From: Wolbachia endosymbiont of Fragariocoptes setiger
Lineage (GTDB): Bacteria; Pseudomonadota; Alphaproteobacteria; Rickettsiales; Anaplasmataceae
Direction of reading: 5' to 3'
Assembly (NCBI GenBank): GCA_019061405.1
Contig: JAHRAF010000005.1
Span: 4,188-68,187, forward strand
Length of the DNA: 64,000 bases
In this document: piece by piece, positions 31,637-47,911 of the stretch
How the letters are laid out: each line of letters opens with the position of its first letter
How positions within the stretch are numbered: position 1 is the stretch's first letter
Program-made: the position numbers and the translations under genes
Notes under the pieces: generated by a model
The model's database searches: none
The model's input: the letters and a program-made list of their open reading frames with translations, nothing else
What the model was told of the DNA's origin: nothing

Positions 31637-32794
31637 TTAAGGTTTCAGCATTCTAGCACACATTATGTAATTAACATCAACATTCTCAGTTAATTGCCAC
31701 TGACATTTTGTTATGCTATATTCTATTCCCTTCATGTCTTGTAATAGAACATTATTCTCTCTGAGAAAGCTTGCAATCTCTGAAGGTTTAATAAATTTCT
31801 TCCAATTATGTGTACCTCTTGGTAACCATCTTAGTACATATTCTGCGCCAATTATTGCGAAAAGAAAGGCTTTAATAGTCCTATTTATTGTAGATATAAA
31901 AATTATACCTCCTGGTTTTAGTAGTCTTAATGTTTTATTTATAAAAAACTTTAAGTCATCTACATGTTCAATGACTTCCATCAGCAATATAATATCATAT
32001 TTCTTATTATCACTCATCTTTTCAATACTAGTACAAATATACTTTATATCTAATTCCACTTTTTCTGCATGTAATTGTGCTACTTGAATATTCTCTTGAC
32101 ATGGATCAATTCCTACAACATTTAATCCCATACGAGCCATAGACTCAGATAAAATACCTCCTCCACATCCTACATCAAGAACTGATAATTTATGCTTCAA
32201 TTTATATTGTTTTATCTTATCTACTATATACATTACTCTGATAGGGTTAATCATATGTAATGGTTTGAATTTACCATTTTCATTCCACCATTCGTGAGCT
32301 ATTCTAGCAAATTTTGATATTTCATCCTTATTACACGTACTCACTCTACGAGAAACAATGTTATTAAGCTTTTTAAGTCGTTCTTTATGTCTGATTTCTC
32401 CTGAAAATGAAGTATCCAAAAATTGCTTTACTATTTGCTTTGCTAATTCAGTTTCGGTAAATCTTGCACCTAAACATAATATATTTGCATCATTGTGTTC
32501 ACGAGCTAATCGTGTAACTTCAACATTACTACATACAACTGCTCTTACTTCTCCAAAACGATTCGCTACAGTTGCCATACCTGCACCAGTACCACATATT
32601 AGTATTCCATAGCATGATTTTTTATCTATAATATCCTGAGCAACTTTATCAGCATAATCCAAATAATCCACACTTTTTTGTTCAGAGGTACAACCATGAT
32701 CTATTACCTCGTATTCTAGCTCTTTTAGATAAGGTATTATTTCTTCTTTAAGCATGAAGCCGGCATGGTCTGAAGCTATCGATATTATAGACAT
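31637..32794 (-). CDS. rpiB-ubiG: Fusion: ribose-5-phosphate isomerase B plus UbiG O-methyltransferase
   Basis: N-terminal ASDHAG, ICGTGAG, AREHNDAN and RHKERL; C-terminal EISKF..IAHEWW..GKFKPLH..NP.R, LDVGCGGG and EVIEHV; one uninterrupted ORF. Confidence 0.9.
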   Translation of the reverse strand: MSIISIASDHAGFMLKEEIIPYLKELEYEVIDHGCTSEQKSVDYLDYADKVAQDIIDKKSCYGILICGTGAGMATVANRFGEVRAVVCSNVEVTRLAREHNDANILCLGARFTETELAKQIVKQFLDTSFSGEIRHKERLKKLNNIVSRRVSTCNKDEISKFARIAHEWWNENGKFKPLHMINPIRVMYIVDKIKQYKLKHKLSVLDVGCGGGILSESMARMGLNVVGIDPCQENIQVAQLHAEKVELDIKYICTSIEKMSDNKKYDIILLMEVIEHVDDLKFFINKTLRLLKPGGIIFISTINRTIKAFLFAIIGAEYVLRWLPRGTHNWKKFIKPSEIASFLRENNVLLQDMKGIEYSITKCQWQLTENVDVNYIMCARMLKP

Positions 32795-32869: not shown

Positions 32870-33397
32870 TTATTCTTTTATATCATTAATTCTACTATAT
32901 AGTTCTAGTTTGATTATATTATTAATTTTATCAATGTAATCTGCGAAACCTCTATACTCCTCATCAGTATAATTTTCACCAGAGGCTTTTTCTTCAATAA
33001 ATAGTTCTTTTAATTTGGATAAATCAGAATCTTGATCACTCAATACAATATTTCTTTCTATATAGATAAAGTCTGATAGTAATAAACTTACTTTTAGCAA
33101 ATCTTGACTAGATACATTTGAAAGATTATCTAAGTTATCTATGATATAAAAGAACTCACTTTTATCTTGAGCAAATTTTTTATCTTCCATAATAAGTTTA
33201 TGATGATTGATAAACTTATCATCGAAAGCTTTATTAAGATCAACGAAATTAATGTCATCGTTTTTAGTATTATCAAGCAACATATCCATTCTTGCCATAC
33301 GGGCATTCATTACATCATTATAGTCATTAAGCTCTATCTTACCATCTTTATCTTGAAACAATCTATAATAATCAAAACCTTTAAAGTTCTTCATCAC
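32870..33397 (-). CDS. Acidic hypothetical protein with two EF-hand-like loops, coupled to virB6-4
   Basis: ATGA overlap with the virB6-4 stop (33394-33397); loops FQDKDGKIELNDY and DNTKNDDINFVDL. Confidence 0.7.
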   Translation of the reverse strand: MMKNFKGFDYYRLFQDKDGKIELNDYNDVMNARMARMDMLLDNTKNDDINFVDLNKAFDDKFINHHKLIMEDKKFAQDKSEFFYIIDNLDNLSNVSSQDLLKVSLLLSDFIYIERNIVLSDQDSDLSKLKELFIEEKASGENYTDEEYRGFADYIDKINNIIKLELYSRINDIKE

Positions 33398-36300
33398 TTA
33401 TCCTCTTTTTCACTATGAGTTTCGGGTTTTTTATCATTTTTAGTAGTTTCATTGGTTTTTTCATTCTTATCGATAAAATCTTCTCTCTCAGGGTTTTTAG
33501 ATGCACCTTCTTCTATCTTTTTTATTAAATCTTGTCTTATTTTAGATTGAAATTTTTCAAATTCTCTAAAATCATAACTATGATTATCAACAGAATTTCT
33601 TCTTGGATTAGTAAGTTTAATGGGTCTTGACTTTTTACTATCGCCATCTATACCTGCTTTTTCATTTATGCTTTTTTGCTTGAAAGTTTTAGGTACATTT
33701 TCACTTGTTTGTTTTTTTAGTCCTGCCAGTTCAGAATTATCTATAGAATGCCTTCTTTTATTAATCAATTGAATAGATTCAGATTTTTTACTACTTATTT
33801 GCTCAAAGCCTACTTTTTCATTTCTTTTTTCTTCAGTTGAATAGTCGAAACTTATATTATTTTCTTTTAATGCATCTTCTTCTTTACTATTTTTTCTCTC
33901 AGTTTGATTGAGTTCAGAATTCTCATTAAAGATTGACGAAAGATCGTATACTCCAAAATCATCAGAATCAACTTCTCTTTTTCTTTCCTCTCTTTCAGTA
34001 CGTTTCTGATAACCATCAAAAAATGAAGATAGATAATTATCTTCATTCATTACGTCATCATCGGTTAATCCTTTTCTTCCATGATGATCAGAACTATCTT
34101 TAAAAGCTTTGACTTCTTCACTTTGTTGATCCTGATTAGGCTTGTCTTTCTCAGGTTCAACCTTACTACTAATCACCTCAACTTCTTCTTTACTATTTTT
34201 TCTCTCAGTTTGATTAAGAGCAGAATTCTCATCAAAGATTGACGAAAGATCATATACTCCAAAATCATCAGAATCAACTTCTCTTTTTCTTTCTTCGCTT
34301 TCAATACGCTTTTGCTTTATTGCATCTTCATCGATAAATCCTTTTCTTCTAGAAGTTTGATCATCTTTTTCTATTTCTTCACTATTTTTACCTTCACTAG
34401 GATGACCTTTTTCGGGTTTAATTTTTCTACCAATTGTTTCATCATATAGCTTTTGTAAAAAATCCTTTCTATAAAGCTTTGCCATGTAGAGTAGATCATT
34501 TTTATGATCAAATTCTCCTGGATTGGTTTTCTGATCAGATTTTCTTCCTATAGAGTGAAGACCATATGACCAATAAAATTTCATAGCATCATTTAACGTA
34601 TAACCTAAGTGTGACCCCACATACCCCTTATAATAGTTTAAATACTTATTAATTTTCCTATGGCCAATATCATCAACATCTTCTCCAAATGCTCTGTAAA
34701 TTTTTTCCTCTAATTTAGCAACATCGTTTTTAGGCGATGTAATAAATTTTGTTGTCTCAATTGCACCGTAAACCAACGTACGTGGTAAATATTTTAATCC
34801 CTTACCAATTACTGGCACTCGACCCAAAAGGTTAGTTGTTCCGTCAAATAAACGACCAGGTACACTAGTAACTCCATTGATAACACTACCAATATAATGA
34901 CCACCTATATTACTTAGTCCGGACAATAAGTTCATGAGAGGAGCACCATCACCGTACATACTAGAAATAGTATAAAACGACCTTCCACCTGAAAGAGCCG
35001 CACCAATTTCTTGTGCTAAACTAAGTAACGAGTATATTAATAGTGAAAGCATAAATAGCATAAATACCTCCACCAAACTAATCAGATCACCCTGTTGAAT
35101 GTCTTTTATTCTCTGATAATCGCTATTTTCTTTATAATCCCCCTTTATTTTGCCTAACTGACAATTGTTTTTTGTTATTCTTTCTTTAATCGAATCTTTT
35201 ATTTTGTCTTTTCCTAAATCTAGCCTCAGTTTTTCACTATTATTTATTTCTTGATTAATTTTCTCAATAAGAATTCGCATATCCAGTTTATCTGACGCAT
35301 GTAATAAGCTATTTGTTAATCGAGCCAGACTTTTTGCATAGTCACCACACCCACCATCACTCAAGATTATGTCACTATCATCTATGTAGTAATCAGATTC
35401 AGGAAAAGGATCTAAAAATGGGTAGTCTATATATCTAAATCGTGATTTATCATAATTAGGAGGAATGGGAATATAACCAGCACCACCAGTAAATTTCACT
35501 GTACCAGGACTGTGACTAGTAGCTTGAGGAATAGAATAGGGAACAAAAGTTTGACCAGGAGTCCAAGAAAAATATTCTTTATCGACAATACAAAAACCTC
35601 CAAACATCCAACTTGGAGCACATAACTTAACCTCTAACCACTTATTATAACACGTAGTAAAACCCAGTTGTTTATAGATAGTATTCATTATCAATGCACC
35701 AAATAACGACACTAGAATAAATACCATCACTGATTGAAGGCAGAAACTTATACACAACTTCACCCAACCATCAAATAAATTTTTTAATTGCGCGAATAAA
35801 ATACAAATTAAAAACAATGGCATCATTGCTATTAGAAAAGCTAAACCGAGAAAGCCAGAGAGAAACATAACAAATGCATAAAAACAGAGTATGGTATATA
35901 AAATTATACTCATTAAAATCATTGGTATGATAAGAATACTCACCCACATTTTATAAATAAATAACCCTAGTAACTTCCTCCAGAATGAATAAGAAAAAAA
36001 CTTGTATAATATAGTTTCTATGAAGGGAAATAACACATCATTATCTGAATTTGGCATAAAGTTAGTAACAGTTTTTATAAGCTGTTCAGTACCATTCACA
36101 AATAAAATCAAGAAGTTGTTATAAAAAAATTCAAAGCTACCAGGAGATAAAAGTGTTACTACCAACGTAACCTTTATCATTCTTATGAGTAGATCATGCT
36201 TTGTCTGTTGAATCATACCAAAAAGGTAGAGAAGAGATGAAATCACTATAAATAGTACAAGTAAGGCAAATACAAAATTACGAAAACTTAAATTATTCTC

Positions 36301-37281
36301 AGCAATATTTTTGAACATCACTTGTGCAGCTGCACATAGGTTGTCATCATTATCACTATTTGCACATTGCTTGTCGCCCTTGACACAACAATTCTTATTA
36401 CTAGAAATCAAAAGAGTATCTTTCAAGAATTTATATATAACATCAAGAATTTTTACTCTTCCTTCCTGATCTATTACCCCATTTAAAAACTCAAATGAAT
36501 AGCCACCTGCATTATTATAATAATATTGATCCAATATCTTAACATATATTTCCCATCCTGATTCCAATTTAACAGAGTTACAACTAGCATCTTTTAATTT
36601 GTTACTTCCTAAATGAAAAATTCCATCTCCTTGTTGCGCTACAGAATTATAACCCATATGTACAGTACATGATTTAGGATAACGCATAGTTTCTAAAGTC
36701 TCATTTGGATCTGGATCATTCGGTTTTCTAAATAAAAGGTAGGCACCATAACCATTTCTAAACCAACATGGTTTAGAGTTTTCTCCAATCCGTTGACAGT
36801 TACCACAGTTATTTGCAGAAGTAGATTCATATTCACTACAAACTAAATCAAAATTAGGTAGGTGATTATCATCATCACCAAAATATTTCAACTGCTCTAA
36901 TTTTTGCGGATCTACATATTTACTTTTTGCCTCTCTTGCATTATCTACAGTCCATGAGGTCCAAGCACCACTTGTTCTCACTCTTAAATCCTCTCCATTT
37001 GTCTTAAACCCCGTCTTCTTCCATTTTACTACTTGATTAAAGTGAAAACCCCAATTAGGAGTACCTTTATCATCATTATATTTACCATCTAATGGAATAA
37101 ATTCATCTTTGTCAGCTTGAGAAAAATAAGCATTCACTCCAACAGGTTTAGGGCCAAAATAATCGGCTGACAAACATCTTGGGAAAGGTATATCTTCTCT
37201 CGTAGGGCTACAACCAATTACCATGATAAATGCCGCAAAAAGCAACAACCTAATCCAACTCTTACCTGAATGCAATGGCAT
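33394..37281 (-). CDS. virB6: Type IV secretion VirB6/TrbL paralogue 4 (long, repeat-bearing C-tail)
   Basis: Lipobox VIGC; TrbL-type membrane core (RMIKVTLVV..L, LFDGWVK); fourth virB6 of the operon. Confidence 0.9.
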   Translation of the reverse strand: MPLHSGKSWIRLLLFAAFIMVIGCSPTREDIPFPRCLSADYFGPKPVGVNAYFSQADKDEFIPLDGKYNDDKGTPNWGFHFNQVVKWKKTGFKTNGEDLRVRTSGAWTSWTVDNAREAKSKYVDPQKLEQLKYFGDDDNHLPNFDLVCSEYESTSANNCGNCQRIGENSKPCWFRNGYGAYLLFRKPNDPDPNETLETMRYPKSCTVHMGYNSVAQQGDGIFHLGSNKLKDASCNSVKLESGWEIYVKILDQYYYNNAGGYSFEFLNGVIDQEGRVKILDVIYKFLKDTLLISSNKNCCVKGDKQCANSDNDDNLCAAAQVMFKNIAENNLSFRNFVFALLVLFIVISSLLYLFGMIQQTKHDLLIRMIKVTLVVTLLSPGSFEFFYNNFLILFVNGTEQLIKTVTNFMPNSDNDVLFPFIETILYKFFSYSFWRKLLGLFIYKMWVSILIIPMILMSIILYTILCFYAFVMFLSGFLGLAFLIAMMPLFLICILFAQLKNLFDGWVKLCISFCLQSVMVFILVSLFGALIMNTIYKQLGFTTCYNKWLEVKLCAPSWMFGGFCIVDKEYFSWTPGQTFVPYSIPQATSHSPGTVKFTGGAGYIPIPPNYDKSRFRYIDYPFLDPFPESDYYIDDSDIILSDGGCGDYAKSLARLTNSLLHASDKLDMRILIEKINQEINNSEKLRLDLGKDKIKDSIKERITKNNCQLGKIKGDYKENSDYQRIKDIQQGDLISLVEVFMLFMLSLLIYSLLSLAQEIGAALSGGRSFYTISSMYGDGAPLMNLLSGLSNIGGHYIGSVINGVTSVPGRLFDGTTNLLGRVPVIGKGLKYLPRTLVYGAIETTKFITSPKNDVAKLEEKIYRAFGEDVDDIGHRKINKYLNYYKGYVGSHLGYTLNDAMKFYWSYGLHSIGRKSDQKTNPGEFDHKNDLLYMAKLYRKDFLQKLYDETIGRKIKPEKGHPSEGKNSEEIEKDDQTSRRKGFIDEDAIKQKRIESEERKREVDSDDFGVYDLSSIFDENSALNQTERKNSKEEVEVISSKVEPEKDKPNQDQQSEEVKAFKDSSDHHGRKGLTDDDVMNEDNYLSSFFDGYQKRTEREERKREVDSDDFGVYDLSSIFNENSELNQTERKNSKEEDALKENNISFDYSTEEKRNEKVGFEQISSKKSESIQLINKRRHSIDNSELAGLKKQTSENVPKTFKQKSINEKAGIDGDSKKSRPIKLTNPRRNSVDNHSYDFREFEKFQSKIRQDLIKKIEEGASKNPEREDFIDKNEKTNETTKNDKKPETHSEKEDK
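33876..34311. repeat. ~130-bp direct repeat (33876-34005 and 34182-34311; period 306 bp) in virB6-4
   Basis: Two copies of ERKREVDSDDFGVYDLSSIF(D/N)ENS(A/E)LNQTERKNSKEE. Confidence 0.9.
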
Positions 37282-37366
37282 ACTTTAAATATTCTCTCAA
37301 CAGACGAGTAACAAATTCAAAAGATCTTACTTTTAGTATCTTGTTACCACATTTACATACTTTAGT

Positions 37367-40303
37367 TTAATCAATAGACTTATCATCAGAAGAAATCTTT
37401 TCTCCTATATCATTAGAAGAACCTCGACTACTTAGTGCTTCAGAAGTATTTTTATCTTCCTTAATATCTGGTTTTAAATCTTTTTCACCACCAGATTGAA
37501 ACTTCATCCTTGTAGGATCTCTACTTGATTGAGATTTGATGCTCTCTATCATACTTTGAGTATTATTATCAAGACCAACAGTTGATAATATAGATTGTGA
37601 TGCACTATTAGCTAAGAAACTAATAGAACCTGCAAATCCATTACCAGTGTTCAATATGCTTTGAGCAATAGTTTCAGATAATCCAACAAAAGACTTCATT
37701 ATATAAGCAATAATGAGGTATATGAATACTTGAATTAAATCAATAGGTAGAGCAGCAAAGAAACCATTTGTTTTTCTACCATCTAGTACATTTTCTATAG
37801 ATGTATCAGGATTATATCCAACTGGTAACATACCATGAAAAATACAAAAATCAGTATCAAAAATATACACACTCATTACACACTGGTTACATGCTGCAAA
37901 GTTTGTTAAGTTATATAAAACCGAATACATCAACTGATTTAAAAGGGATAAAGATAAAAATAGAATGATTGGTTGTAGTGCAACATGAGCTATGGACTTA
38001 ATCCAACCATCAAATAAATACTTTGTTTGTTGAAATAAAATAAATACAATAAATAAAGGTGTTAATGAAAGCAAGAATCCACACAGAAGTATAGCGATAA
38101 TATACTGTATTATTGCACCCATTATGCATTTAAAAAACACAAAAGTGGCATGAAGTATTACTCCAAATGCTATAAAGCCGAAAGGTCCAGAAAAAATTAA
38201 TGATAAAAACTTTAACCAGGTTTCTCCTGTAAAAAATATTCCTACAGTTGAATCTAAGAATGCTAAGTTTTTATTCTTATTATCCGCGATAAAACCAGAA
38301 AAATTATTAACCAATTGGTTACTTCCATCAATAAAAAACATAGACAAGTTTTTTCCTAAAATCTCCCAGCTTTTATCACTAAAAGCAAATGCTATGAATG
38401 CTATTTTAGTTATCCTTATAATGAAATCATAATTGTTTAGCTGCACTGTTCCCAGCATATAACCTATAACAGAAAACATTAAATACAAGATTAATAAAGC
38501 TCTTACGGTAAGAACTAATCCTTTTCTATATCCTTCATATGTTTCTCTAACAGTATTTACAATGCCATCACCTTGAGATTCAGAACCTTTTACAAATTGC
38601 ATTAACCTATCTACAGAGGATGAAAGAAAGTTATTCACATTCTTTTTTAAGTTTAAGGTTACTGTGTACTGATTATTTTCATAGTAATCACGATTACTAT
38701 CTGTAATATCACTTTTCTCAATATCACGAAGATCAACTCCAAAATATATCTTTTGAGGTTTATCTTCTAATAAATCACGCGCTTCGATTGTATACTCTCC
38801 ATCTTGCTTATAATATTTAATTCCACCTCCTATTTGTTCTGATATTTTGGCTACTTCATAACCCTCAATTTTATCCCCTTTTGGACGATCATTACCTATA
38901 TATAGGTATAGTTTATTTCCTTGATTGGATATACAAGATTTACTTACTTTTACATGATAACCGCCACGATTAGCACTACGGTCTCCATTATTCGCTATTG
39001 CAAGCATAACACTGCTTTCATGCTTCACATGTGATTGCACTTCGTATTCATGGTCTAACTTTAAAGAAAAATCCTTAAAATCCTCAGTAACATCTGTACA
39101 GATACCACTATTACCTTTTGGAAGACACTGAGTACCTTGAGAATCATAATCCATATCATCATGTTTCGTAGAATCGTCAATAACAATGCTAGTCGCAGAT
39201 ATTTTTGCAATAAGTGCTTCAGCCCAAGAATCTTTCTCGATAAGATCTTCAGCCCAAGAATCTTTCTCGTTTTGACCACTTCCTTTTAACTTTTCTATTT
39301 TATCTTCTATTGACTCAAAATAAGAGTACATATTACACTTATTCTCTGCATCATACTTTCCATATCTTATTGAGGAAACACAGTTTTGATGTGAATTTTG
39401 TAAAGTCCCATTCCACATACCACTGTCATTATAGCAAATATTTTGATTATAACAGTTCAACTCATAAGAGTTATACTTTTTTTCTTCACTATCATTTTTA
39501 TCTTTGCTTGACACAACTTTATTTAATGCTATCTTGTGTCGACGTAAATCTAATAGCGAACCTATCTTCCATGGACTATTGTCCTTTATATGCTCTACAT
39601 TAAAATGAACCTTGTTATCATAGGGGGTATATCCATTCCCGACTAAAATATCATATTCATTGTCTTTCGAATCTTTATCTTCTAATGACTTGAGATCTGA
39701 TTCAACACATTTATTCTTATCCTGTATAAAGAATTTACCACCCTTACATATTGCATCTGTACTAGCTTTTTGCTTACATTTGTTATCTAAATAATAATTT
39801 TCGTCTAAAGTTACACCTTGTAAATTGTTACAATTAATTTTCATTTTCCTTGGTATTAAACTAAAAGTTAATTTATCACCAGGATTAACCTTAATTTTAC
39901 TATCAATGTAACGTCTTTTTATCTCTTCTTTCTGAAAAACTCCTAAACATAAAGATGATAAATCTTTACCAAAATTATCTTCTACTTTATTAATGTATTT
40001 TGCTTGATCGTAATTAGGTTCTGAACCATCAGCACAAAATACAGCAGGAACTAAAATTTCCACAGGATTCTTACCTTTTTTTTTCGGACAAAAATCAATT
40101 TCTCCATTAACATTAAATTTTATTGACTCCCCTTTACTAATTACTTGCTCTGAATCAACCCAATGCATTACAGAGTTCGCATCATCTTTACGTAGCGGAA
40201 CCTCAACATGAAAACTAATGTCTCTACTCTGTAAACCAGGTTCAACACAGTCCATGTTACAACTAGTAATAAAAAAACATAATATTATTATCAATAATCT
40301 CAT
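37367..40303 (-). CDS. virB6: Type IV secretion VirB6 paralogue 3
   Basis: Lipobox ITSC; TrbL core (IRITKI, PLFIVFILFQQTKYLFDGW). Confidence 0.9.
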   Translation of the reverse strand: MRLLIIILCFFITSCNMDCVEPGLQSRDISFHVEVPLRKDDANSVMHWVDSEQVISKGESIKFNVNGEIDFCPKKKGKNPVEILVPAVFCADGSEPNYDQAKYINKVEDNFGKDLSSLCLGVFQKEEIKRRYIDSKIKVNPGDKLTFSLIPRKMKINCNNLQGVTLDENYYLDNKCKQKASTDAICKGGKFFIQDKNKCVESDLKSLEDKDSKDNEYDILVGNGYTPYDNKVHFNVEHIKDNSPWKIGSLLDLRRHKIALNKVVSSKDKNDSEEKKYNSYELNCYNQNICYNDSGMWNGTLQNSHQNCVSSIRYGKYDAENKCNMYSYFESIEDKIEKLKGSGQNEKDSWAEDLIEKDSWAEALIAKISATSIVIDDSTKHDDMDYDSQGTQCLPKGNSGICTDVTEDFKDFSLKLDHEYEVQSHVKHESSVMLAIANNGDRSANRGGYHVKVSKSCISNQGNKLYLYIGNDRPKGDKIEGYEVAKISEQIGGGIKYYKQDGEYTIEARDLLEDKPQKIYFGVDLRDIEKSDITDSNRDYYENNQYTVTLNLKKNVNNFLSSSVDRLMQFVKGSESQGDGIVNTVRETYEGYRKGLVLTVRALLILYLMFSVIGYMLGTVQLNNYDFIIRITKIAFIAFAFSDKSWEILGKNLSMFFIDGSNQLVNNFSGFIADNKNKNLAFLDSTVGIFFTGETWLKFLSLIFSGPFGFIAFGVILHATFVFFKCIMGAIIQYIIAILLCGFLLSLTPLFIVFILFQQTKYLFDGWIKSIAHVALQPIILFLSLSLLNQLMYSVLYNLTNFAACNQCVMSVYIFDTDFCIFHGMLPVGYNPDTSIENVLDGRKTNGFFAALPIDLIQVFIYLIIAYIMKSFVGLSETIAQSILNTGNGFAGSISFLANSASQSILSTVGLDNNTQSMIESIKSQSSRDPTRMKFQSGGEKDLKPDIKEDKNTSEALSSRGSSNDIGEKISSDDKSID
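39211..39270. repeat. 30-bp tandem duplication in virB6-3 (EKDSWAEDLI/EKDSWAEALI)
   Basis: 23-bp identical core at 39217-39239 and 39247-39269. Confidence 0.9.
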
Positions 40304-42618
40304 TTTGATCCTTGTGATCTGATCATTTTCATTCTTGGAACCGCAGGCTTATTTTGCTGTTGACCTTGATTCCAACCAGTGAAAGCCTGCAAATGTTTCC
40401 GATAAGATGGACTCGGTTCATGATTAGTATGAGTATTAAATAATGTATCAGACATTATACGAGCAGAACCTATTACCGCCTTCATAGAGTGACCTAAAAT
40501 TATAAATGCTATAATCGAGGTAATGTTAGGTGTGTGTTCTGCAGCATACATATACAAAACACATACAGGAATGTTAGCATCTGATGATATCCATGAAGGA
40601 ACAAAAATTCCTAAATTAAGGTTAAGTACACATTGCGAACACACGGTAAAATTAAAAACTGAATATATAATATAATCCATTGCTCGACCTATCACAGATA
40701 TAAAAATCATCACTATTACAGGAATCATAGTAAATCTCCCTAAATAATTAATCCAGGTAGTAAACATTTTTTTAGTATATGAAAATAAAAGACAAATAAT
40801 AAATATAGGAGAGAGAGAGAGCAATAAAGCAATTACTACTATAGATGTTACCATAACCAACAAGGCGTCAAAAGTTGATAAAAATGTCACCTTTATTCCC
40901 CAGATTAGCAAAAAGAATGATACAATACCTAAAGGCCCAGAAAAAATGAGAGATATTATCAAAAGCACTGAATGTGATGATAACAACCTATTTAACGGAA
41001 GATCAAGAAATGCAAGAACTGAGTCATTTTTACTTATATTTTCTATATTTGCTATTGCGATCAATTGTTTTGGAGCATTGATAAATAATGAAAATAGATT
41101 TTCATAGAAAAAGTTCCAGCTATTATCCTGTAAAAGCTGTACAATAATTCCTATTCTTACACACATAATCAAAAACTCATATATAGAGGAATGAGATAAT
41201 CCAAAAAAGTAGTATAAAGTATATAAGATTATAGATAATACTAGTAATGCTACTATTGTAGATCTAATATTACTTATTTTATCTGATCTTATAAAGCTCT
41301 CATAAATAGTTCTTGTTGGACTGTTTCCACGACTATAGTTACCTAATTGATAATGAGATCCAAAAAATGCTTCATTTACAGATTTATTCAGAAAATTATA
41401 TATCACACTTATATTGTCTATAGAAGGTCTTTTCATTGTAACTCTAACATCGAACGCACCTTCGTTATTATAATTGCAGCCATGATCCCTAATTCCAAAA
41501 TATATCTTTGATTCTCCTTTTTGTAATTTATTCTTTATTAAATCCTTCAAATACTCAGCATCATGGATTCTACTAATATCAACTGGTATATCATCACCAT
41601 CACCTGGTTTATGACTTGGCATACTATTTCCAGTGTGAATATAAAAAACCTTTTCTGGATTTATATTAATATGACGTTTACTCCTAATATTATACCCACC
41701 CTTACCTGAAGAAGAAAATTTAAACTTTAAATTTTCTTCTTCAGGATGATCTACCTTAACTTCATTTTCATAATTAGTTATTACACCACCCTGTGGTGAA
41801 TGTAAAAAATCCTCACCTTCCATACTAACTTTCAGTAATGGAATATAAGTTTGCAATGAAATAGTTCTTTTTACTTTTTCAATAATATCATTTTTAGTCT
41901 CATTTTCTTTTATATGTTCACGTATATCTTCTGTTGACTCAGAGTAAATATAATTACTATCATTACATCCCCTTTTTATCACAAAATTCAGAATATATGT
42001 ATCCATTTCTTTAAAAAGGTTATTTTCAAATTTATTACACCAAAGTTGCTTACTCAAATCAGAATGATTATTTTTTATTTCATTTTTTCTAATTTCTTCT
42101 TTTTTGTCCTCATCCAAACTTATATATTCTGCACCTTTTAACCATTCTTGATTATCAGGAATATACTTATTAGGACAGAATTTAATAGAGGAATCATCTT
42201 TACTCACAATACAAGCATCTTTGTTCAGAATTTTAGCGAAATATTCTTTTTCATTTTCATTACAATTATTATTAATAGATATCATTCTCTCTTCTTTCTT
42301 ATCATTTATGCAAATTTTGTTTGGAATCACACTGAAACTTATCTTATCACCAGGTTCAAGCTTGAATGGTAATTTAATTGTTTTAGATTGATCATCTATA
42401 TAGTTATCAGCATCATTACTATCTTTGCAAAAATTAAGATTTCGAGGAATAATGTCAAGTTCTGTAATATTACCCAGGATTTCCATTTCCATCCATTCTT
42501 TCTGTTTTGTAGAGAGTGAAATTGATCGTTTACTAACTCCTAAATCAGTTGGCTGAATACAATCATTACTACATCCAAAAATGAAGAAAAACGATATGAA
42601 TAATAAAAATTTTATCAT
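40300..42618 (-). CDS. virB6: Type IV secretion VirB6 paralogue 2
   Basis: Probable start ATG 42618 (MIKFLLFISFFFIFGC lipobox); the track start 42756 overlaps virB6-1. TrbL core present. Confidence 0.88.
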   Translation of the reverse strand: MIKFLLFISFFFIFGCSNDCIQPTDLGVSKRSISLSTKQKEWMEMEILGNITELDIIPRNLNFCKDSNDADNYIDDQSKTIKLPFKLEPGDKISFSVIPNKICINDKKEERMISINNNCNENEKEYFAKILNKDACIVSKDDSSIKFCPNKYIPDNQEWLKGAEYISLDEDKKEEIRKNEIKNNHSDLSKQLWCNKFENNLFKEMDTYILNFVIKRGCNDSNYIYSESTEDIREHIKENETKNDIIEKVKRTISLQTYIPLLKVSMEGEDFLHSPQGGVITNYENEVKVDHPEEENLKFKFSSSGKGGYNIRSKRHININPEKVFYIHTGNSMPSHKPGDGDDIPVDISRIHDAEYLKDLIKNKLQKGESKIYFGIRDHGCNYNNEGAFDVRVTMKRPSIDNISVIYNFLNKSVNEAFFGSHYQLGNYSRGNSPTRTIYESFIRSDKISNIRSTIVALLVLSIILYTLYYFFGLSHSSIYEFLIMCVRIGIIVQLLQDNSWNFFYENLFSLFINAPKQLIAIANIENISKNDSVLAFLDLPLNRLLSSHSVLLIISLIFSGPLGIVSFFLLIWGIKVTFLSTFDALLVMVTSIVVIALLLSLSPIFIICLLFSYTKKMFTTWINYLGRFTMIPVIVMIFISVIGRAMDYIIYSVFNFTVCSQCVLNLNLGIFVPSWISSDANIPVCVLYMYAAEHTPNITSIIAFIILGHSMKAVIGSARIMSDTLFNTHTNHEPSPSYRKHLQAFTGWNQGQQQNKPAVPRMKMIRSQGSK

Positions 42619-42631
42619 GATACAGGGTACA

Positions 42632-45100
42632 TTAGGAGTCACTACTCTTTGATAATGATTCAGATGATTTACATCCTCCCCCATCAGAACTATCTTTATC
42701 TTTTGAATCAGAAGACCCAGACGCAGCTTTGAGTGCAGCTCCAGCGGCTTTAGCACCAGAAATAGCTTTTTTAATCATATTTTTAGGAGTTTCACCACTA
42801 CCAAGAGCTGCTCTAGGATTGCCTGCAAGTTCTGCAACTATTGAAGGGAGAATTCCTAGAAATTGATAAAATAAGAATAATATCAGGCTTAATTTCAATA
42901 TTTCCCCAAGAACAGAATTCTCAAATTCAATATAGGCGAATTTAAACAGACCAAAAACATTACCATTCTCCCAACTATAATTCTGAAGCAAGCATGCAAG
43001 AGTATTAGTATGAGCCTTACACATATTATCTTCTAACTTAAACCATACCTTTTTTTGTGGAGCTAGAGCTTCAATAGGATACTGATGAAATGTTAATCCT
43101 TTAAAAAAGATCTTATCACATGATATAAACATAAAAGATAGAAAAGCAAAAAGCAAAACAGGGTATACACTATAAGTAGTAAATTCTTTTATCCAACCAT
43201 CAAAATATCCTTTAGTATGCTGAAATAGTACCATTGGAACAAATAGTGGTGATAAAATTATGAGTACATTTAAAGCAATATATGACAAAATAAAAGTATA
43301 TGACACCCATAAAATAATCATCATCATCATTATAGCCATAAATAGAGCTACTAAAGCTGTTAGAATCTGACTACCAGCAAATATTATTCCCAGTATTGAA
43401 CCTAGAGTCAAAAGAATTGGAGCACTGCCAAAAAAAGCAGCTACTACAGAGATTCCTCCAGTGGAAAGCGCTCCAGATACACCATTCAGGGGAGCGCCAA
43501 AGTAAAATAGTATTCGACAATCAAGTTTATCCCAGGGAGCAAGATAGTTATATCTCACTTCTCTTACACCATCAGTGTATACGTAATCCTTGATGTTATA
43601 ATTGCATATCCCTTGACTCTCAGAAGATGCTTTCAATACTATATCTGACAATCCATTCGAGATATCAACTAAGTAGCGAGAGTAAGTAGCCATACCATTA
43701 CCTGCTGTAAAGTACATAACTAAGGCAAATTTAAGAATTAACATATACATTTCTGATGGACTACGAACTCCACCAGACATCACTTTTATAGAAAACAATA
43801 TCAAAGCTAAAACTAAAGCAGCAGTAACTGTATCCTTTAAAGTTTTTTGAGCCTTTGATAAAAAAGTCTTCCCTTCCGATTTACCTTTTCCAACAATTAA
43901 GGCATCTAAAGATTCCTTAATACACTGTACTACCATCGATGTAATCGGAATAGGTGTTAACGATTTACTGCCAGCATCACTATAACAAGACTGTGAAATA
44001 TAGTCTGGAAAGCAGCCACTATTATCGTAACCCATAAAGATTTTTCCTTCTTTTTTAAAATCCCGTATTATATCCTTATAGTCTCTAGATTTGTCTATGC
44101 CCTCTAAGGAGGTCACTTCATCTCCTTTATATGAAAATTTCATCTTAGATTTTTCACACATTGGAGCACCTGGATCTGGAGGTAAATATGTACAACCCAT
44201 ATCAACTCCGCTTGGCCATGGAGTCATTTTAATTTTCAACCAGCTAACACTCTTTAATTCTACACATAACTTAGACCCTCTTCTCACTGCTCTAAATTTT
44301 GATCCATGAATGTCTACTTCTTCTCCAACTTTAAGAGTTTTGCACTCTAGATTACCATCAACCTGTGGAAGCCATACTTTACCAGGATTTCCCAACTCTT
44401 TTTCCCTAACATCAAAATTTTTCTGAATTTCACTTGGATCTTTTATCAGTGTTTCAGCATTAAATGCTAAATGCTCTCTGTTACAAATTTCTATATAATC
44501 ACTGTATTCCACAGCATTCTTAGGCCAGTAGTACCCATTATCAGGTTCATATTGATCCAGATTAAATAAATCTTTTTCAATCTTTTTTCCTTGCCCTATT
44601 GAATTACCTCCTAATGCTTCAAAATACTCATCCTCTGTTTTATATGTTTTATCTAATTTGACTTTATGCGATAAACCACTCTGAGAAAGTTCAAAAGCTC
44701 TATACTTCCCTTTATCATCTCGCATAACAGGATGTCTTACAAAACTATGTTGACATACTACTAAACCACCTATTGCTTTCCATACTCCTATAGTTGCAGT
44801 AATCATTCCGGCAATAACAAAAAGAGTAAGTATACCCATTGAAGAAACCAGCATAATTATCCCTGTCCACAGAGCCCCAACTAATATAGCTATCCCTGCA
44901 ACGGCTGCACCAGTACTAAATTGTCCACAATCAGGGTTAGATGCTCGATTGAAGGTATCTGTACTGTTAAACCTACTTATGATCTCTGATTTTTTACTAC
45001 CTGTGTAGGCTTCTTCAGCAAAAGCCTGAAATAACAGGAAAACGTCAATATTTAAAAGAAATATTGCAGCAAGCAATAACGAAAGTTTTGTCTTAAACAT
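42632..45100 (-). CDS. virB6: Type IV secretion VirB6 paralogue 1
   Basis: Signal peptide ending AFA; TrbL core (LILFSIK, PLFVPMVLFQHTKGYFDGW); overlaps the virB4 stop. Confidence 0.9.
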   Translation of the reverse strand: MFKTKLSLLLAAIFLLNIDVFLLFQAFAEEAYTGSKKSEIISRFNSTDTFNRASNPDCGQFSTGAAVAGIAILVGALWTGIIMLVSSMGILTLFVIAGMITATIGVWKAIGGLVVCQHSFVRHPVMRDDKGKYRAFELSQSGLSHKVKLDKTYKTEDEYFEALGGNSIGQGKKIEKDLFNLDQYEPDNGYYWPKNAVEYSDYIEICNREHLAFNAETLIKDPSEIQKNFDVREKELGNPGKVWLPQVDGNLECKTLKVGEEVDIHGSKFRAVRRGSKLCVELKSVSWLKIKMTPWPSGVDMGCTYLPPDPGAPMCEKSKMKFSYKGDEVTSLEGIDKSRDYKDIIRDFKKEGKIFMGYDNSGCFPDYISQSCYSDAGSKSLTPIPITSMVVQCIKESLDALIVGKGKSEGKTFLSKAQKTLKDTVTAALVLALILFSIKVMSGGVRSPSEMYMLILKFALVMYFTAGNGMATYSRYLVDISNGLSDIVLKASSESQGICNYNIKDYVYTDGVREVRYNYLAPWDKLDCRILFYFGAPLNGVSGALSTGGISVVAAFFGSAPILLTLGSILGIIFAGSQILTALVALFMAIMMMMIILWVSYTFILSYIALNVLIILSPLFVPMVLFQHTKGYFDGWIKEFTTYSVYPVLLFAFLSFMFISCDKIFFKGLTFHQYPIEALAPQKKVWFKLEDNMCKAHTNTLACLLQNYSWENGNVFGLFKFAYIEFENSVLGEILKLSLILFLFYQFLGILPSIVAELAGNPRAALGSGETPKNMIKKAISGAKAAGAALKAASGSSDSKDKDSSDGGGCKSSESLSKSSDS

Positions 45101-47498
45101 TTTTTACCTTGTCATAAAATATAGGGAGCCAAACCTTTGGATTATCTCCCACTTCTCTCAATATATCATGCAATAATAAAACACTTTCAGCACGTCCAGA
45201 TAGTACATTAATTATGTCATCTAAATCCTTCAAATCTATTCTAGCTACAATAGCATTAACGCCTTGTTTTACTAAAAAATATCTAGTGCTAGGATCTGTA
45301 TGTTTTATTAATATATATTCACGTTCAGTGAGCATAAAAACATCTCTATAAACATTTGTAGCCTTCAAGTTAGGTAGAAAAATCTGCGTTGCTGTCTGCT
45401 GTACAAGTGTATCACTAATAGCACTTTTGCTTGCATCTTCAACGCTCTGAGTTGCAAAAATCACAAAGGCATTTAATTTTCTGAGGACTTTTAACCAATC
45501 CTTTATTTTAGGAGCAAAAACTGGATTATCTATCAATGCCCATGCTTCATCTAATACGATCATAGATGGGGTGCCATCAAGAGACATATTAATTCTATGA
45601 AAAAGATATATCAGCACTGGACCAAGAGCAACAGGATCTTTTAGTAGCTTAGCCATCTCAAAACCAAATACTCTTGCTCGAGAAAAATCTAAGAGATCAT
45701 CTTCATTATCAAATATTGCAGCATGAGAACCATCACCATGCCACATTGATATTGATCCCGCTAATGTATCAGGACCTGCCAAACCTAAGAATGGAACAAG
45801 ATTACTTAAAATTCTATCTTCTTTTTTTAATTTAAAGTTACCTTCAATTGCATCATTAATTCTCGATATATTCTCAGAGGTAAATTTATCAGTATATACC
45901 GAGACTAAAGATTTCATCCACTCCATTAAAAATGTTCTGTTATCTGGAGTATCATCAAGTTGTAGAGGGTTAAAATTTGTTTGAGTTCTTGGTTCAATGA
46001 TAGTATATATTCCACCAAGAGCTCTAAGGAAAATTTCGGCGCCACAATCTTTATCAAAGAAAAATATTCTTGGAGAAAATTTCATTGTTTGGGCACATAG
46101 AAAGTTCATCAGAACTGTTTTTCCAGCACCAGTTGGACCAATTATCATTGTGTGACCAACATCTCTAATATGAAAATTAAAGAAGAATGGAGTCTTAGAT
46201 GTTGTATCAAAAACTGTTACAGCATCTCCCCAATGGTTATCAAATTTTTTACCAGTAGGATAATTGTGCTGAGATGCAAACCCTGAGAGATTAAGACTAC
46301 TTATAGTCGCTTTTCTGACTATATAGTCAAAGTTACCAGGAAGCTGTGCCCAAAAAGATGGCTCAAGATTTACTCTCTCTCTGACGGGATAAATACCACA
46401 ATTAGAAAGCTCCGATTCTACTAATGATAAAGCATTATCCAGTAATTTAGGACTTTTTTCTATACATAAAATAGTTAAATGGTGCTTACCAAATGCAATT
46501 TTACCACTTGTTGCATCATCAAGTGCTTGGGAAATCTCTGCGATTTGCGAAATGGCTTTATCCTCAGATTGTATCATGCGATTTTGTTGTATTTGCATCT
46601 TTGTGACGGCTAGCTGTCTATTGATAAAGTGAAAAGACTGAGTAATAATAAATTCATGATCAAGCTGTAAAAATGCATCAAGCATTCCTGCAGAAGTATG
46701 ATTGCCATATTCTTTTATACTCACTATTCCAGCATATTTGCTTTCATTATGAGTCACAACCTGTATAATTTTTCGACCAAAAAACATTCTATGCACAGGT
46801 AGATATCTTGATATCTGAGTATTAAGTGGAAAAAGTGTACTAGTTACAAAACCACAATTAACGATTCTAGATAAAAACTCCATGATTTCACAAAATAACC
46901 CTCTAGGAGTTTCCCTAACTCCTAAAATCTTAGGAGAGTAATTTCTTAAACTTGTCATCACACGATTTGTGGTCTCTTCCAGATCTTCATAAACGGCACG
47001 CATGTCATCTTCCCATGCATGTTTTGAAGTCACATGACCAAATTTTTTAAGTAAATATGATAAAAATTCCACTCCATTCTTATCTACCTTGCGAATAATT
47101 GAAATGTATAAATCGTTAACAAATGAACGCCTAGTTGAATGTTTCTCTCTCCACTTCTGATTTACATGATTAGCAAAAAAATTTGGTAAATTCTGATTTG
47201 CAAATTCATCAGAAAAAATATTTTTCTTTCTTCTAATAGTATGAAAATACAAACTAAATGCGGGAGATGAGATGCTCCTTAACATCTGATTTCTAATGTT
47301 ATTCTGTATTACCAAGTCTTCATCATCAGCTGTTTCAAATGCGAACCCATTGAGCTTTATTATCTTAACTAGCGAATCTCCATTTGTTACTAGAGTGGTA
47401 CTATTCCAGTAGCAAGAATAAGGTATAAATTTGGCAGCATGGACTTCTCTATTTAAAATAGACTTATTCTTTGATCTAATGACCTTAAGATTCAACAT
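45093..47498 (-). CDS. virB4: Type IV secretion ATPase VirB4
   Basis: Walker A GPTGAGKT, FFFDKD, Walker B DEAW and FATQS. Confidence 0.97.
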   Translation of the reverse strand: MLNLKVIRSKNKSILNREVHAAKFIPYSCYWNSTTLVTNGDSLVKIIKLNGFAFETADDEDLVIQNNIRNQMLRSISSPAFSLYFHTIRRKKNIFSDEFANQNLPNFFANHVNQKWREKHSTRRSFVNDLYISIIRKVDKNGVEFLSYLLKKFGHVTSKHAWEDDMRAVYEDLEETTNRVMTSLRNYSPKILGVRETPRGLFCEIMEFLSRIVNCGFVTSTLFPLNTQISRYLPVHRMFFGRKIIQVVTHNESKYAGIVSIKEYGNHTSAGMLDAFLQLDHEFIITQSFHFINRQLAVTKMQIQQNRMIQSEDKAISQIAEISQALDDATSGKIAFGKHHLTILCIEKSPKLLDNALSLVESELSNCGIYPVRERVNLEPSFWAQLPGNFDYIVRKATISSLNLSGFASQHNYPTGKKFDNHWGDAVTVFDTTSKTPFFFNFHIRDVGHTMIIGPTGAGKTVLMNFLCAQTMKFSPRIFFFDKDCGAEIFLRALGGIYTIIEPRTQTNFNPLQLDDTPDNRTFLMEWMKSLVSVYTDKFTSENISRINDAIEGNFKLKKEDRILSNLVPFLGLAGPDTLAGSISMWHGDGSHAAIFDNEDDLLDFSRARVFGFEMAKLLKDPVALGPVLIYLFHRINMSLDGTPSMIVLDEAWALIDNPVFAPKIKDWLKVLRKLNAFVIFATQSVEDASKSAISDTLVQQTATQIFLPNLKATNVYRDVFMLTEREYILIKHTDPSTRYFLVKQGVNAIVARIDLKDLDDIINVLSGRAESVLLLHDILREVGDNPKVWLPIFYDKVKNV

Positions 47499-47507
47499 TA
47501 AATAAAC

Positions 47508-47804
47508 TTAACTAATATCATAGGAATTGGCCCCGTGGTAACCATGATTCAGACACATTGGACACTTTTGCATTTTTACCATAAACAATTCAATAAATAA
47601 AGGTTCCTTAGCAGAAGCTATGTAACCTAATCCATGTATTGTTGGTAAAAGTAAAAGAATGACCCTTAAATCACTTGTATTAATAAATGTTACCATACAA
47701 ATCATAACATTCAGTATAGCGAACATATAACTGACACCAAAAAGCATTACTGGCCTAGTTAAACCTTTAAATAATTGATCTGTTTGTATATTACCTGTCG
47801 ACAT
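47508..47804 (-). CDS. virB3: Type IV secretion VirB3
   Basis: LFKGLTRPVMLFGV and KEPLFIELF; directly upstream of virB4; probable ATG at 47804. Confidence 0.93.
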   Translation of the reverse strand: MSTGNIQTDQLFKGLTRPVMLFGVSYMFAILNVMICMVTFINTSDLRVILLLLPTIHGLGYIASAKEPLFIELFMVKMQKCPMCLNHGYHGANSYDIS

Positions 47805-47911
47805 ATTTTTATAGATAAATTTAAAAGTTATACTAATACTACACAAGTATATTAAAAATTCATTGAAGTTAATAGCATTTTTGATAGAATACGTTGGTTA
47901 ATAACTTAACA

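Follow-up and report, generated by a model that had tools for sequence, protein, structure and literature searches.

A candidate PA-IL (LecA)-like module in the N-terminal regions of extended VirB6 proteins from a Wolbachia-related bacterium

The 64,000-nucleotide stretch analysed here (the window; positions 4,188 to 68,187 of contig JAHRAF010000005.1, assembly GCA_019061405.1, Wolbachia endosymbiont of Fragariocoptes setiger) carries virB3, virB4 and four consecutive virB6 paralogues of a type IV secretion system (T4SS) at positions 33394-47846 of the minus strand. The N-terminal regions of three of the encoded proteins, VirB6-2, VirB6-3 and VirB6-4, contain motifs that resemble, in the same order, the two conserved segments of the PA-IL (LecA) lectin family. 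We propose, as a reading that we consider evenly poised, that these modules are very divergent, insertion-bearing relatives of PA-IL with a role in the periplasmic stalk and a metal site in VirB6-4. In the full-text literature, no fold assignment for the VirB6 N-terminal domain was found, nor any link between VirB6 and a lectin, PA-IL or a jelly-roll, in agreement with an earlier note on this DNA, which knew of no such description. Published descriptions of the N-terminal region of Rickettsiales VirB6 go no further than a variable extension, periplasmic or hydrophilic (PMC2653234, PMC7648143). The lipoprotein signal of VirB6 is already known; the PA-IL-like reading of the N-terminal domain appears to be new.

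In the proposed mechanism, VirB6-2, VirB6-3 and VirB6-4 would each open with a lipoprotein signal peptide; between this and the TrbL/VirB6 membrane domain, and directly adjoining the latter, would lie a disulfide-rich beta-sandwich module in the periplasm. The PA-IL-like fold would be expanded by insertions, of ~60 amino acids (aa) in VirB6-4, whereas those of VirB6-2 and VirB6-3 would exceed 250 aa and be partly helical. In VirB6-4, the near-invariant D251, D/N256 and N257 adjoin a conserved G-x-W-x-S-W loop and would probably bind metal. The modules would build or decorate the periplasmic stalk of the T4SS, with Ca2+ as a likely stabiliser in VirB6-4.

The VirB6 proteins and their shared motifs

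All four paralogues score 38.8-62.8 bits against Pfam PF04610 (gathering cutoff 25.9). They belong to the TrbL/VirB6 family and to its extended Rickettsiales subtype, the 'extended VirB6-like' type reported previously (PMC2653234, PMC7648143), and are encoded in a virB3-virB4-virB6 operon. The genes and the layout of their products are as follows.

42632..45100, minus strand: virB6-1, with a TrbL/VirB6 Pfam domain
40300..42618, minus strand: virB6-2, start probably ATG 42616-42618; the mechanically called open reading frame (ORF) is 40300..42756, from GTG 42756. In the numbering of that ORF, used throughout for VirB6-2: lipobox C62, N-region aa 62-498, TrbL domain aa 505-694
37367..40303, minus strand: virB6-3, 978 aa, with lipobox C15, N-region aa 15-600 and TrbL domain aa 605-803
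33394..37281, minus strand: virB6-4, 1295 aa, called from the ORF and Pfam TrbL PF04610 (E 9.7e-12), with a lipoprotein signal peptide, a predicted N-terminal beta domain, TrbL/VirB6 at aa 341-545 and a long acidic C-terminal extension

Canonical VirB6/TrbL proteins (Agrobacterium tumefaciens VirB6; R388 TrwI, PDB 7o3v) likewise have a TrbL/PF04610 domain and a periplasm-facing N-terminus and are encoded in virB3-virB4-virB6 operons, and the window VirB6 proteins give a weak PDB match to TrwI. The canonical proteins are ~300-350 aa long with a short periplasmic N-terminus, whereas those of the window have N-terminal beta modules of 300-600 aa, lipoprotein signals and long C-terminal extensions.

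The earlier note had singled out seven peptides in these N-terminal regions as LecA-like signatures. All seven are present in the translated minus-strand ORFs; the position given for WKKTGFKTNGEDLRVRTSGAW was exact, and that given for IYVKILDQYYYNNAGGYSFEF, ~36488-36559, was about ten bases off its actual 36487-36549. The LecA sequence and the two LecA motifs quoted with them match PDB entries at 100%. The peptides and the elements that contain or surround them are listed below, with hhalign comparisons to LecA or to a PA-IL family profile where these apply.

37210..37212, minus strand: VirB6-4 lipobox Cys C24 (VIGC/S), from a pattern check and orthologue conservation
36322..37212, minus strand: VirB6-4 N-terminal domain, aa 24-320, predicted as a single compact domain rich in beta strands
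36952..37032, minus strand: VirB6-4 N-motif hairpin VVKWKKTGFKTNGEDLRVRTSGAWTSW, aa 84-110, aligned by hhalign to LecA ~11-37
36961-37023, minus strand: WKKTGFKTNGEDLRVRTSGAW, VirB6-4 aa 87-107
36772..36951, minus strand: VirB6-4 insertion, aa 111-170, Cys-rich, with a predicted local distance difference test score (pLDDT) <50 over part of its length; it would interrupt the PA-IL-like core
36481..36558, minus strand: VirB6-4 C-motif GWEIYVKILDQYYYNNAGGYSFEFLN, aa 242-267, aligned to LecA 92-117
36487-36549, minus strand: IYVKILDQYYYNNAGGYSFEF, VirB6-4 aa 245-265
40088..40165, minus strand: VirB6-3 N-motif 1 HWVDSEQVISKGESIKFNVNGEIDFC, aa 47-72, hhalign to PA-IL 11-40, P 1.4e-3
VirB6-3 aa 48-67: WVDSEQVISKGESIKFNVNG
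39854..39913, minus strand: VirB6-3 N-motif 2 RYIDSKIKVNPGDKLTFSLI, aa 131-150, hhalign to PA-IL 11-28, P 1.5e-3
VirB6-3 aa 139-147: VNPGDKLTF
38939..39016, minus strand: VirB6-3 C-motif 1 SSVMLAIANNGDRSANRGGYHVKVSK, aa 430-455, hhalign P 8e-4
VirB6-3 aa 444-453: ANRGGYHVKV
38636..38752, minus strand: VirB6-3 C-motif 2, KIYFGVDLRD...DYYENNQYTVTLNLKKNV, aa 518-556, membrane-proximal
42319..42366, minus strand: VirB6-2 N-motif FKLEPGDKISFSVIPN, aa 131-146
42334-42360, minus strand: LEPGDKISF, VirB6-2 aa 133-141
41671..41712, minus strand: VirB6-2 GGY-strand counterpart SSGKGGYNIRSKRH, aa 349-362, from the alignment with VirB6-3
41434..41511, minus strand: VirB6-2 C-motif 2 SKIYFGIRDHGCNYNNEGAFDVRVTM, aa 416-441
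41440-41505, minus strand: IYFGIRDHGCNYNNEGAFDVRV, VirB6-2 aa 418-439

The segment VVKWKKTGFKTNGEDLRVRTSGAWTSW is predicted by AlphaFold2 (AF2) as a beta-hairpin, and the LecA residues aligned with it include Tyr36, which provides a Ca-site carbonyl. The LecA residues aligned with GWEIYVKILDQYYYNNAGGYSFEFLN are the last two strands and the Ca/galactose loop, and this C-motif on its own reaches hhalign P 1.7e-4 to 2.9e-5 against PA-IL. VirB6-3 C-motif 1 resembles the last PA-IL strands with degenerate Ca-ligand positions, and its VirB6-2 counterpart SSGKGGYNIRSKRH is without D/N ligands.

The motifs exceed chance: no other positions of the domain are as well conserved among 121 VirB6-4-type, 34 VirB6-3 and 27 VirB6-2 sequences. 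In the VirB6-4 set, the N-motif retains W87 (121 sequences), G96 (115), W107 (120) and W110 (116), and the C-motif D251 (118), Y254 (121), N257 (120) and G259 (120), with position 256 occupied by D in 110 and by N in 11, that is, 121/121. Among 47 Anaplasmataceae orthologues of VirB6-4 the invariant residues are W87, G105, W107, C172, W173, G177, G179 and Y181, together with G242, W243, Y246, I249, D251, Y254, N257 and G259. In VirB6-3, W48, C72 and both G142 and D143 are found in 34/34 and G67 in 33/34; G447-G448-Y449 of C-motif 1 is likewise complete (34/34), and C-motif 2 retains D535 (30/34), N543 (25/34), N544 (33/34) and Y546 (34/34). In VirB6-2, D137, F141 and S142 of the N-motif are present in 27/27, as are G353, G354, N356 and R358 of the GGY-strand counterpart, and C-motif 2 retains D424 in 26/27 and N431 and G433 in 27/27. 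When the residues of each N-region are shuffled, relaxed regular expressions for the motifs still match in 0.1-1% of trials, a rate that is optimistic as the patterns were defined after the data had been seen.

The three N-regions are also related to each other. Those of VirB6-2 and VirB6-3 are homologous over their full length (BLASTP E 1e-16; hhalign 99.2%), and positions 149-269 of the VirB6-4 family match VirB6-3 457-573 (hhalign probability 71%, E 3.7e-5), by which alignment the membrane-proximal C-motif 2 unit of VirB6-3 appears homologous to the C-half of the VirB6-4 domain. VirB6-2 and VirB6-3 may each hold one or two modules, since two N-type and two C-type motifs allow a tandem or a nested arrangement. 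The N-domain of VirB6-2 from Wolbachia wCfeT (P0161) has an extra ~130-aa segment between the first N-motif and the PGD-type motif, so this site tolerates further insertions. The N-region of VirB6-1 is conserved in 39 loci and is unrelated to the other three by hhalign. VirB6-1 has a signal-peptidase-I type signal (FQAFA/EE) and no lipobox, followed by two hydrophobic segments, and carries none of the motifs; the presence of the same module in VirB6-1 was rejected (hhalign P 0.03-0.17).

To our profile, the family extends well beyond the window. VirB6-4 has 46 orthologous loci in Anaplasmataceae, and a profile search of 1.84 billion representatives returned 1984 VirB6-like proteins at E<=0.001; the profile covered both the N-domain and the membrane domain (635 positions), so that the listing is dominated by VirB6 proteins and the search could not reveal stand-alone lectin relatives. 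A hidden Markov model (HMM) of the N-domain only matched 152/152 of the VirB6-like representatives tested, and Neorickettsia is among the named members, as is the Rickettsiaceae symbiont Ca. Sarmatiella. On these matches, the VirB6 N-domain is Rickettsiales-wide.

Comparison with the PA-IL family

PA-IL proteins (PF07828; Pseudomonas aeruginosa LecA, Photorhabdus PllA and the Enterobacter EclA N-domain) are small beta-sandwiches, as the VirB6 domains are predicted to be. In both, the N-terminal hairpin can be written as 'TG-x-x-l-x-x-G-[DE]-x-[IV]-x-[IV]-x-x-x-G-W' and the two end strands as 'l-x-l-x-x-x-D-...-Y-x-[DN]-N-x-G-x-[FY]-x-[VF]', and the two motifs are co-linear. The VirB6 domains differ in having insertions of 60 to >250 aa and in being rich in Cys, anchored by lipid and joined to a polytopic membrane protein, whereas PA-IL proteins are soluble lectins that form cytoplasmic or outer-membrane-associated tetramers or dimers.

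For profile-profile comparison, a PA-IL profile was built from eight sequences, namely LecA, PllA, 30ew and EclA from the PDB and four metagenomic proteins found by PA-IL patterns; these four all pass the Pfam threshold (29.6-68.5 bits). Against this profile the untrimmed VirB6-4 alignment gave two co-linear matches, the C-motif to PA-IL 85-110 (probability 50%, P 1.7e-4) and the N-motif to PA-IL 12-33 (11%, P 2.8e-3). Removal of aa 113-169 and of the N-terminal extension raised the probability to 94.4% (P 9e-8) over 94 columns, PA-IL 12-110, and the aligned LecA segments coincide with AF2 strands of VirB6-4 (aa 88-95, 99-108, 205-208, 241-249 and 258-267). Spliced VirB6-3 constructs joining either N-motif to the ANRGGY motif gave 87-90% (P 2-4e-6; N1+C1 89.6%, P 1.9e-6; N2+C1 87.4%). 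The VirB6-2 N-motif with C-motif 2 (the LEPGDKISF and IYFGIRD...NNEGAFDVRV unit) gave 79.5% (P 1.5e-5, PA-IL 19-110). Among the controls, reversed profiles gave P 0.14-0.21, and 30 block-shuffled profiles reached P 8.5e-4 at best, by way of the C-motif only. Motif parts in the wrong order gave P 3.6e-5 to 1.3e-4, of which 3.6e-5 is the value for the C-motif by itself; VirB6-1 constructs gave P 0.01-0.17 and the VirB6-3 insert alone P 0.027.

With a PA-IL-like HMM, some VirB6-3 orthologues reached 20-24 bits, summed over N- and C-motifs, and the VirB6-3 orthologue of an Anaplasmataceae metagenome-assembled genome contains the full 'ISDEKDSYHDNAGGYHVKV'; the window's own copies scored <8 bits. 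The metagenomic proteins L053 and L055 have two PA-IL-like repeats each, of which Pfam recognises the second only, and very divergent PA-IL repeats missed by Pfam therefore exist outside VirB6 too.

The view of the earlier note that the N-terminal regions are beta-rich extramembrane domains agrees with the AF2 models. The model of VirB6-4 aa 24-320, from a 36-sequence alignment, has pLDDT 79.4 and a predicted template modelling score of 0.77, and consists mostly of strands with a low-confidence insertion. Both of its motifs belong to one interrupted domain, and the suggestion of tandem LecA-like domains in VirB6-4 was accordingly rejected. In the PDB, Foldseek ranks picornavirus capsid jelly rolls, the ZmpC M60 domain and Ca-bound LipL32 highest for this model (E 0.02-0.1, template modelling (TM) score ~0.2), and a search of BFVD gave weak capsid jelly rolls only; as modelled, VirB6-4 looks like a jelly-roll-like sandwich that Foldseek leaves unplaced. 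The model of VirB6-2 aa 62-498 (18 sequences) is poor (pLDDT 58.6), with beta segments of pLDDT 70-88 flanking a disordered or helical insert. Rank 8 in its Foldseek list is 6ygq_B, 'EclA N-terminal domain; PllA-like lectin', a member of the PA-IL family, with a probability of 0.25 (the highest of the list; the next is 0.09) and TM 0.47 by target; its alignment extends across the insert. This match may be taken as a weak but unbiased pointer to the PA-IL family.

Several results weigh against a PA-IL assignment. Pfam PA-IL (gathering score 22.5 bits; positive controls LecA 236.6 and metagenomic members 29.6-68.5 bits) gave 0 matches at E<=10 among the window proteins, the N-regions, 36 VirB6-4-type domains and 8 further orthologues, and PDB sequence searches with a single sequence or a small profile returned no LecA and no lectin. 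Foldseek found nothing in the PDB at E<=0.001 with either model, no PA-IL protein was in the top 50 for VirB6-4, and the EclA match to VirB6-2 has E 0.98. Untrimmed hhalign probabilities ranged over 6-50%, with 50% for VirB6-4, 12% for VirB6-3 and 12% for VirB6-2, on 12-30 columns. The hypothesis itself decided where the profiles were trimmed, and splicing was tried in several variants; the two motifs supply nearly all of the score, and almost none of it stems from the middle of the domain. The D-to-DN loop of VirB6-4 is two residues shorter than that of LecA, and the surface-trypsin data for Anaplasma concern the C-termini and not the N-domains (PMC7648143). For now, remote insertion-trimmed comparisons and one weak structural match carry the fold assignment, which limits the value of the finding.

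Other searches were likewise negative: the VirB6 N-domain is covered by no Pfam or NCBIfam model, BLASTP of the four VirB6 N-regions against LecA gave nothing significant, hhalign of the VirB6-4 alignment gave a probability of 0.95% against the single LecA sequence and of 7-22% against a profile of the 4 PDB PA-IL proteins only, and global-mode hhalign of VirB6 against PA-IL failed. The probability rose only once the Pfam-confirmed metagenomic PA-IL members joined the profile. The LecA-like fold put forward in the earlier note is partly supported: it is favoured by the co-linear signatures, the trimmed hhalign comparisons and the EclA match at rank 8, and disfavoured by the missing Pfam match and by the VirB6-4 Foldseek list.

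Predicted periplasmic location, possible ligand site and rival explanations

Lipoboxes end the hydrophobic segment of VirB6-4 (VIGC24), VirB6-3 (ITSC15) and VirB6-2 (IFGC62), as called by a pattern check only, [LVI]-x-[GAS]-C after an N-terminal hydrophobic region. The box is found in nearly all VirB6-4 orthologues and is also kept in those of VirB6-2 and VirB6-3, and Wolbachia VirB6 has already been described as a lipoprotein (PMC4197220). Cysteines 24, 36, 148, 159, 162, 172 and 234 of the VirB6-4 N-domain vary little or not at all among the 47 orthologues, and a conserved C-x3-C directly after the lipobox is common to VirB6-2 and VirB6-3. The seven conserved VirB6-4 cysteines suggest several disulfide bonds, which would fit a periplasmic location. 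Since the domains follow lipoprotein signal peptides and hold conserved cysteines, they should lie in the periplasm, with a lipid fixing one end to the inner membrane and the TrbL helices fixing the other. For domains facing the periplasm, a host glycan is not an obvious ligand.

In LecA, O3 and O4 of galactose complex Ca2+ and hydrogen-bond Asp100 and Asn107, the carbonyls of Thr104 and Tyr36 are adjacent, and O6 is read by His50 and Gln53 (PMC12684298). In the VirB6-4 alignment D251 corresponds to D100, D/N256 to N107 and N257 to N108, and a conserved A-W-T-S-W loop aligns with the G-W-A-S-Y36 loop of LecA. The PA-IL members L053b and L055b have the same D-to-DN spacing as VirB6-4. The sugar-specificity loop of LecA (His50, Pro51, Gln53) has no alignable VirB6 counterpart in hhalign, its region being replaced in VirB6-4 by the insertion and a PCWF-NG-x-G-x-Y segment. 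Conservation of the D...NN residues, which the earlier note proposed to check in orthologues, holds for VirB6-4 but not for VirB6-2, in which the first N of 'NN' (position 430) is K in 14, E in 9 and N in 3/27, nor for VirB6-3 C-motif 1, in which the LecA-N108 equivalent (position 446, ANRGGY) is R in 27/34. The Ca2+ ligands equivalent to LecA Asp100/Asn107/Asn108 are conserved in VirB6-4 only, and partly in VirB6-3 C-motif 2. On this pattern, metal binding by the VirB6-4 copy is plausible, a metal site in VirB6-3 C-motif 2 is possible, and one in VirB6-2 or VirB6-3 C-motif 1 is unlikely; because the ligand site is degenerate in the latter two, those copies are probably structural only. Sugar binding by the VirB6 N-domains is possible, with nothing that points to it specifically.

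In the R388 structure, canonical VirB6 is the base of the periplasmic stalk beneath VirB5, and the Rickettsiales T4SS is without VirB5; from these two facts we infer a stalk role for the modules. Both virB5 and virB1 are absent in Anaplasma (PMC7648143). The minor pilin-adhesin VirB5/TraC, which sits atop the VirB6 pentamer in the stalk of conjugative T4SS and acts as a pilus-tip adhesin, is a functional analogue only: it is all-helical, and no sequence or fold relation to the VirB6 N-modules is claimed. Rickettsiales have no VirB5 and instead have VirB6 proteins with extra periplasmic domains, a gene content from which the N-modules might substitute for VirB5.

The main rival to descent from PA-IL is an unrelated jelly-roll lineage, in which the N-domains would be periplasmic beta-sandwiches of another or a new kind and 'G-D-x-I-x-I...G-W' and 'D-x-x-Y-x-D-N-x-G-x-Y-x-V' would be convergent edge-strand and metal-loop features. 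We regard this as possible, though on balance doubtful. It would account for the Foldseek list of VirB6-4, headed by viral capsids, ZmpC and Ca-bound LipL32 with PA-IL absent from the top 50, for the consistent failure of Pfam PA-IL to match, and for an hhalign score carried by two motifs only, one of which still takes block-shuffled profiles to P 8.5e-4. It sits less well with the recurrence of both motifs, in unchanged order, across three paralogous families but not VirB6-1, with a chained alignment at P 9e-8 versus 3.6e-5 for the best control, with the coincidence of predicted strands and aligned LecA segments, and with the fact that the only named lectin standing out in an unbiased fold search is a PA-IL member. 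A chance resemblance, aided by the N/K/Y/I-rich composition of an AT-rich genome, is very improbable in our view. The G+C content of the window is 29-36%, single-sequence comparisons with LecA are not significant and the window copies score below 8 bits with the PA-IL-like HMM; against this, the motif residues are the most conserved ones in the 121, 34 and 27 sequences, from lineages of differing composition, shuffles reproduce the patterns at 0.1-1%, and the reversed and shuffled profile controls fail.

A relationship to PA-IL need not imply lectin activity. The proposal that the N-domains are working Ca2+-dependent glycan-binding lectins, tandem LecA-like jelly rolls giving the T4SS sugar recognition, shares all fold and motif evidence with the reading that we prefer. 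The galactose-holding Asp100 and Asn107 of LecA (roles from PMC12684298) have near-invariant counterparts in VirB6-4, and metagenomic PA-IL domains do occur in tandem and fused to carbohydrate-binding modules. We nevertheless hold it to be unlikely: the galactose-O6 loop with His50/Gln53 does not align, most VirB6-2 orthologues and VirB6-3 motif C1 have lost the ligand positions, the single domain of VirB6-4 is interrupted and forms no tandem, and the predicted location of the domain is the periplasm, with a tether to the inner membrane at either end. Ehrlichia and Anaplasma keep the domain too and offer no obvious universal periplasmic glycan; neither is known to have peptidoglycan or LPS. 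Divergent PA-IL relatives with a metal site in VirB6-4 and a part in the stalk remain our preferred explanation.

Operon, source organism and significance

The operon arrangement is of the Anaplasmataceae type, and the gene order in a metagenomic relative (L056) is the same as in the window. By one genome per species, the nearest relatives of the VirB6-4 N-terminus are Wolbachia at ~50-51% identity; Mesenet, Anaplasma, Ehrlichia and Neoehrlichia come next. A 99.7% copy of VirB6-3 (P0154) in a Logan run assembly is the sole near-identical recorded protein besides window VirB6-2 (P0157), and relatives at 66-84% identity come from one Logan assembly and one ENA metagenome scaffold. The source is likely a distinct Anaplasmataceae lineage near Wolbachia that is sparsely represented in databases.

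The GTG-started ORF of VirB6-2 shares 125 nt with the 3' end of virB6-1, whose stop lies at 42632, and a database protein identical to VirB6-2 begins 24 codons inside it. The lipoprotein signal MIKFLLFISFFFIFGC begins at ATG 42616-42618, which is the likely true start and coincides with the end coordinate in the earlier note. The VirB6-3 insert has a short tandem duplication, EKDSWAEDLI / EKDSWAEALI (window ~39210-39270, minus strand, aa 346-365). The C-terminal extension of VirB6-4 contains two ~47-aa copies of EERKREVDSDDFGVYDLSSIF[DN]ENS[AE]LNQTERKNSKEE, ~100 residues apart, which recall the repeat-rich C-termini reported for Anaplasma VirB6-3 and VirB6-4.

33853-33993 and 34159-34299, minus strand: VirB6-4 C-terminal repeat copies, aa ~995-1041 and ~1097-1143

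Downstream, a 175-aa ORF (32870-33397, minus strand) overlaps the virB6-4 stop by 4 nt and may be an unrecognised operon member; L056 has a 174-aa ORF, without a Pfam match, in the same position. A 385-aa ORF (31637-32794, minus strand) is an apparent fusion of ribose-5-phosphate isomerase B (LacAB_rpiB) and class I SAM methyltransferase domains, and its L056 orthologue of 388 aa has both sets of Pfam matches.

Anaplasma, Ehrlichia, Rickettsia and Wolbachia deliver effectors mainly through the vir-homologue T4SS, and the extended VirB6 proteins are its most peculiar parts in Rickettsiales. The N-domain family spans Wolbachia to Neorickettsia and Rickettsiaceae, and could be added to Pfam as an entry of its own or as a clan member. 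With its near-invariant Asp/Asp/Asn site, a PA-IL-like fold would offer a hypothesis on Ca2+, on sugar and on a stand-in for VirB5 that can be tested by way of a few residues. In its most far-reaching form, which we think quite improbable, the modules would be functional Ca2+-dependent lectins descended from PA-IL that replace the missing VirB5 adhesin, with four to five VirB6 paralogues forming a hetero-oligomeric, glycan-recognising stalk or tip. If this were true, a glycan on the bacterial envelope or, should the modules be extruded, on the host vacuole or cell would be recognised, and target recognition would be coupled directly to the secretion channel.

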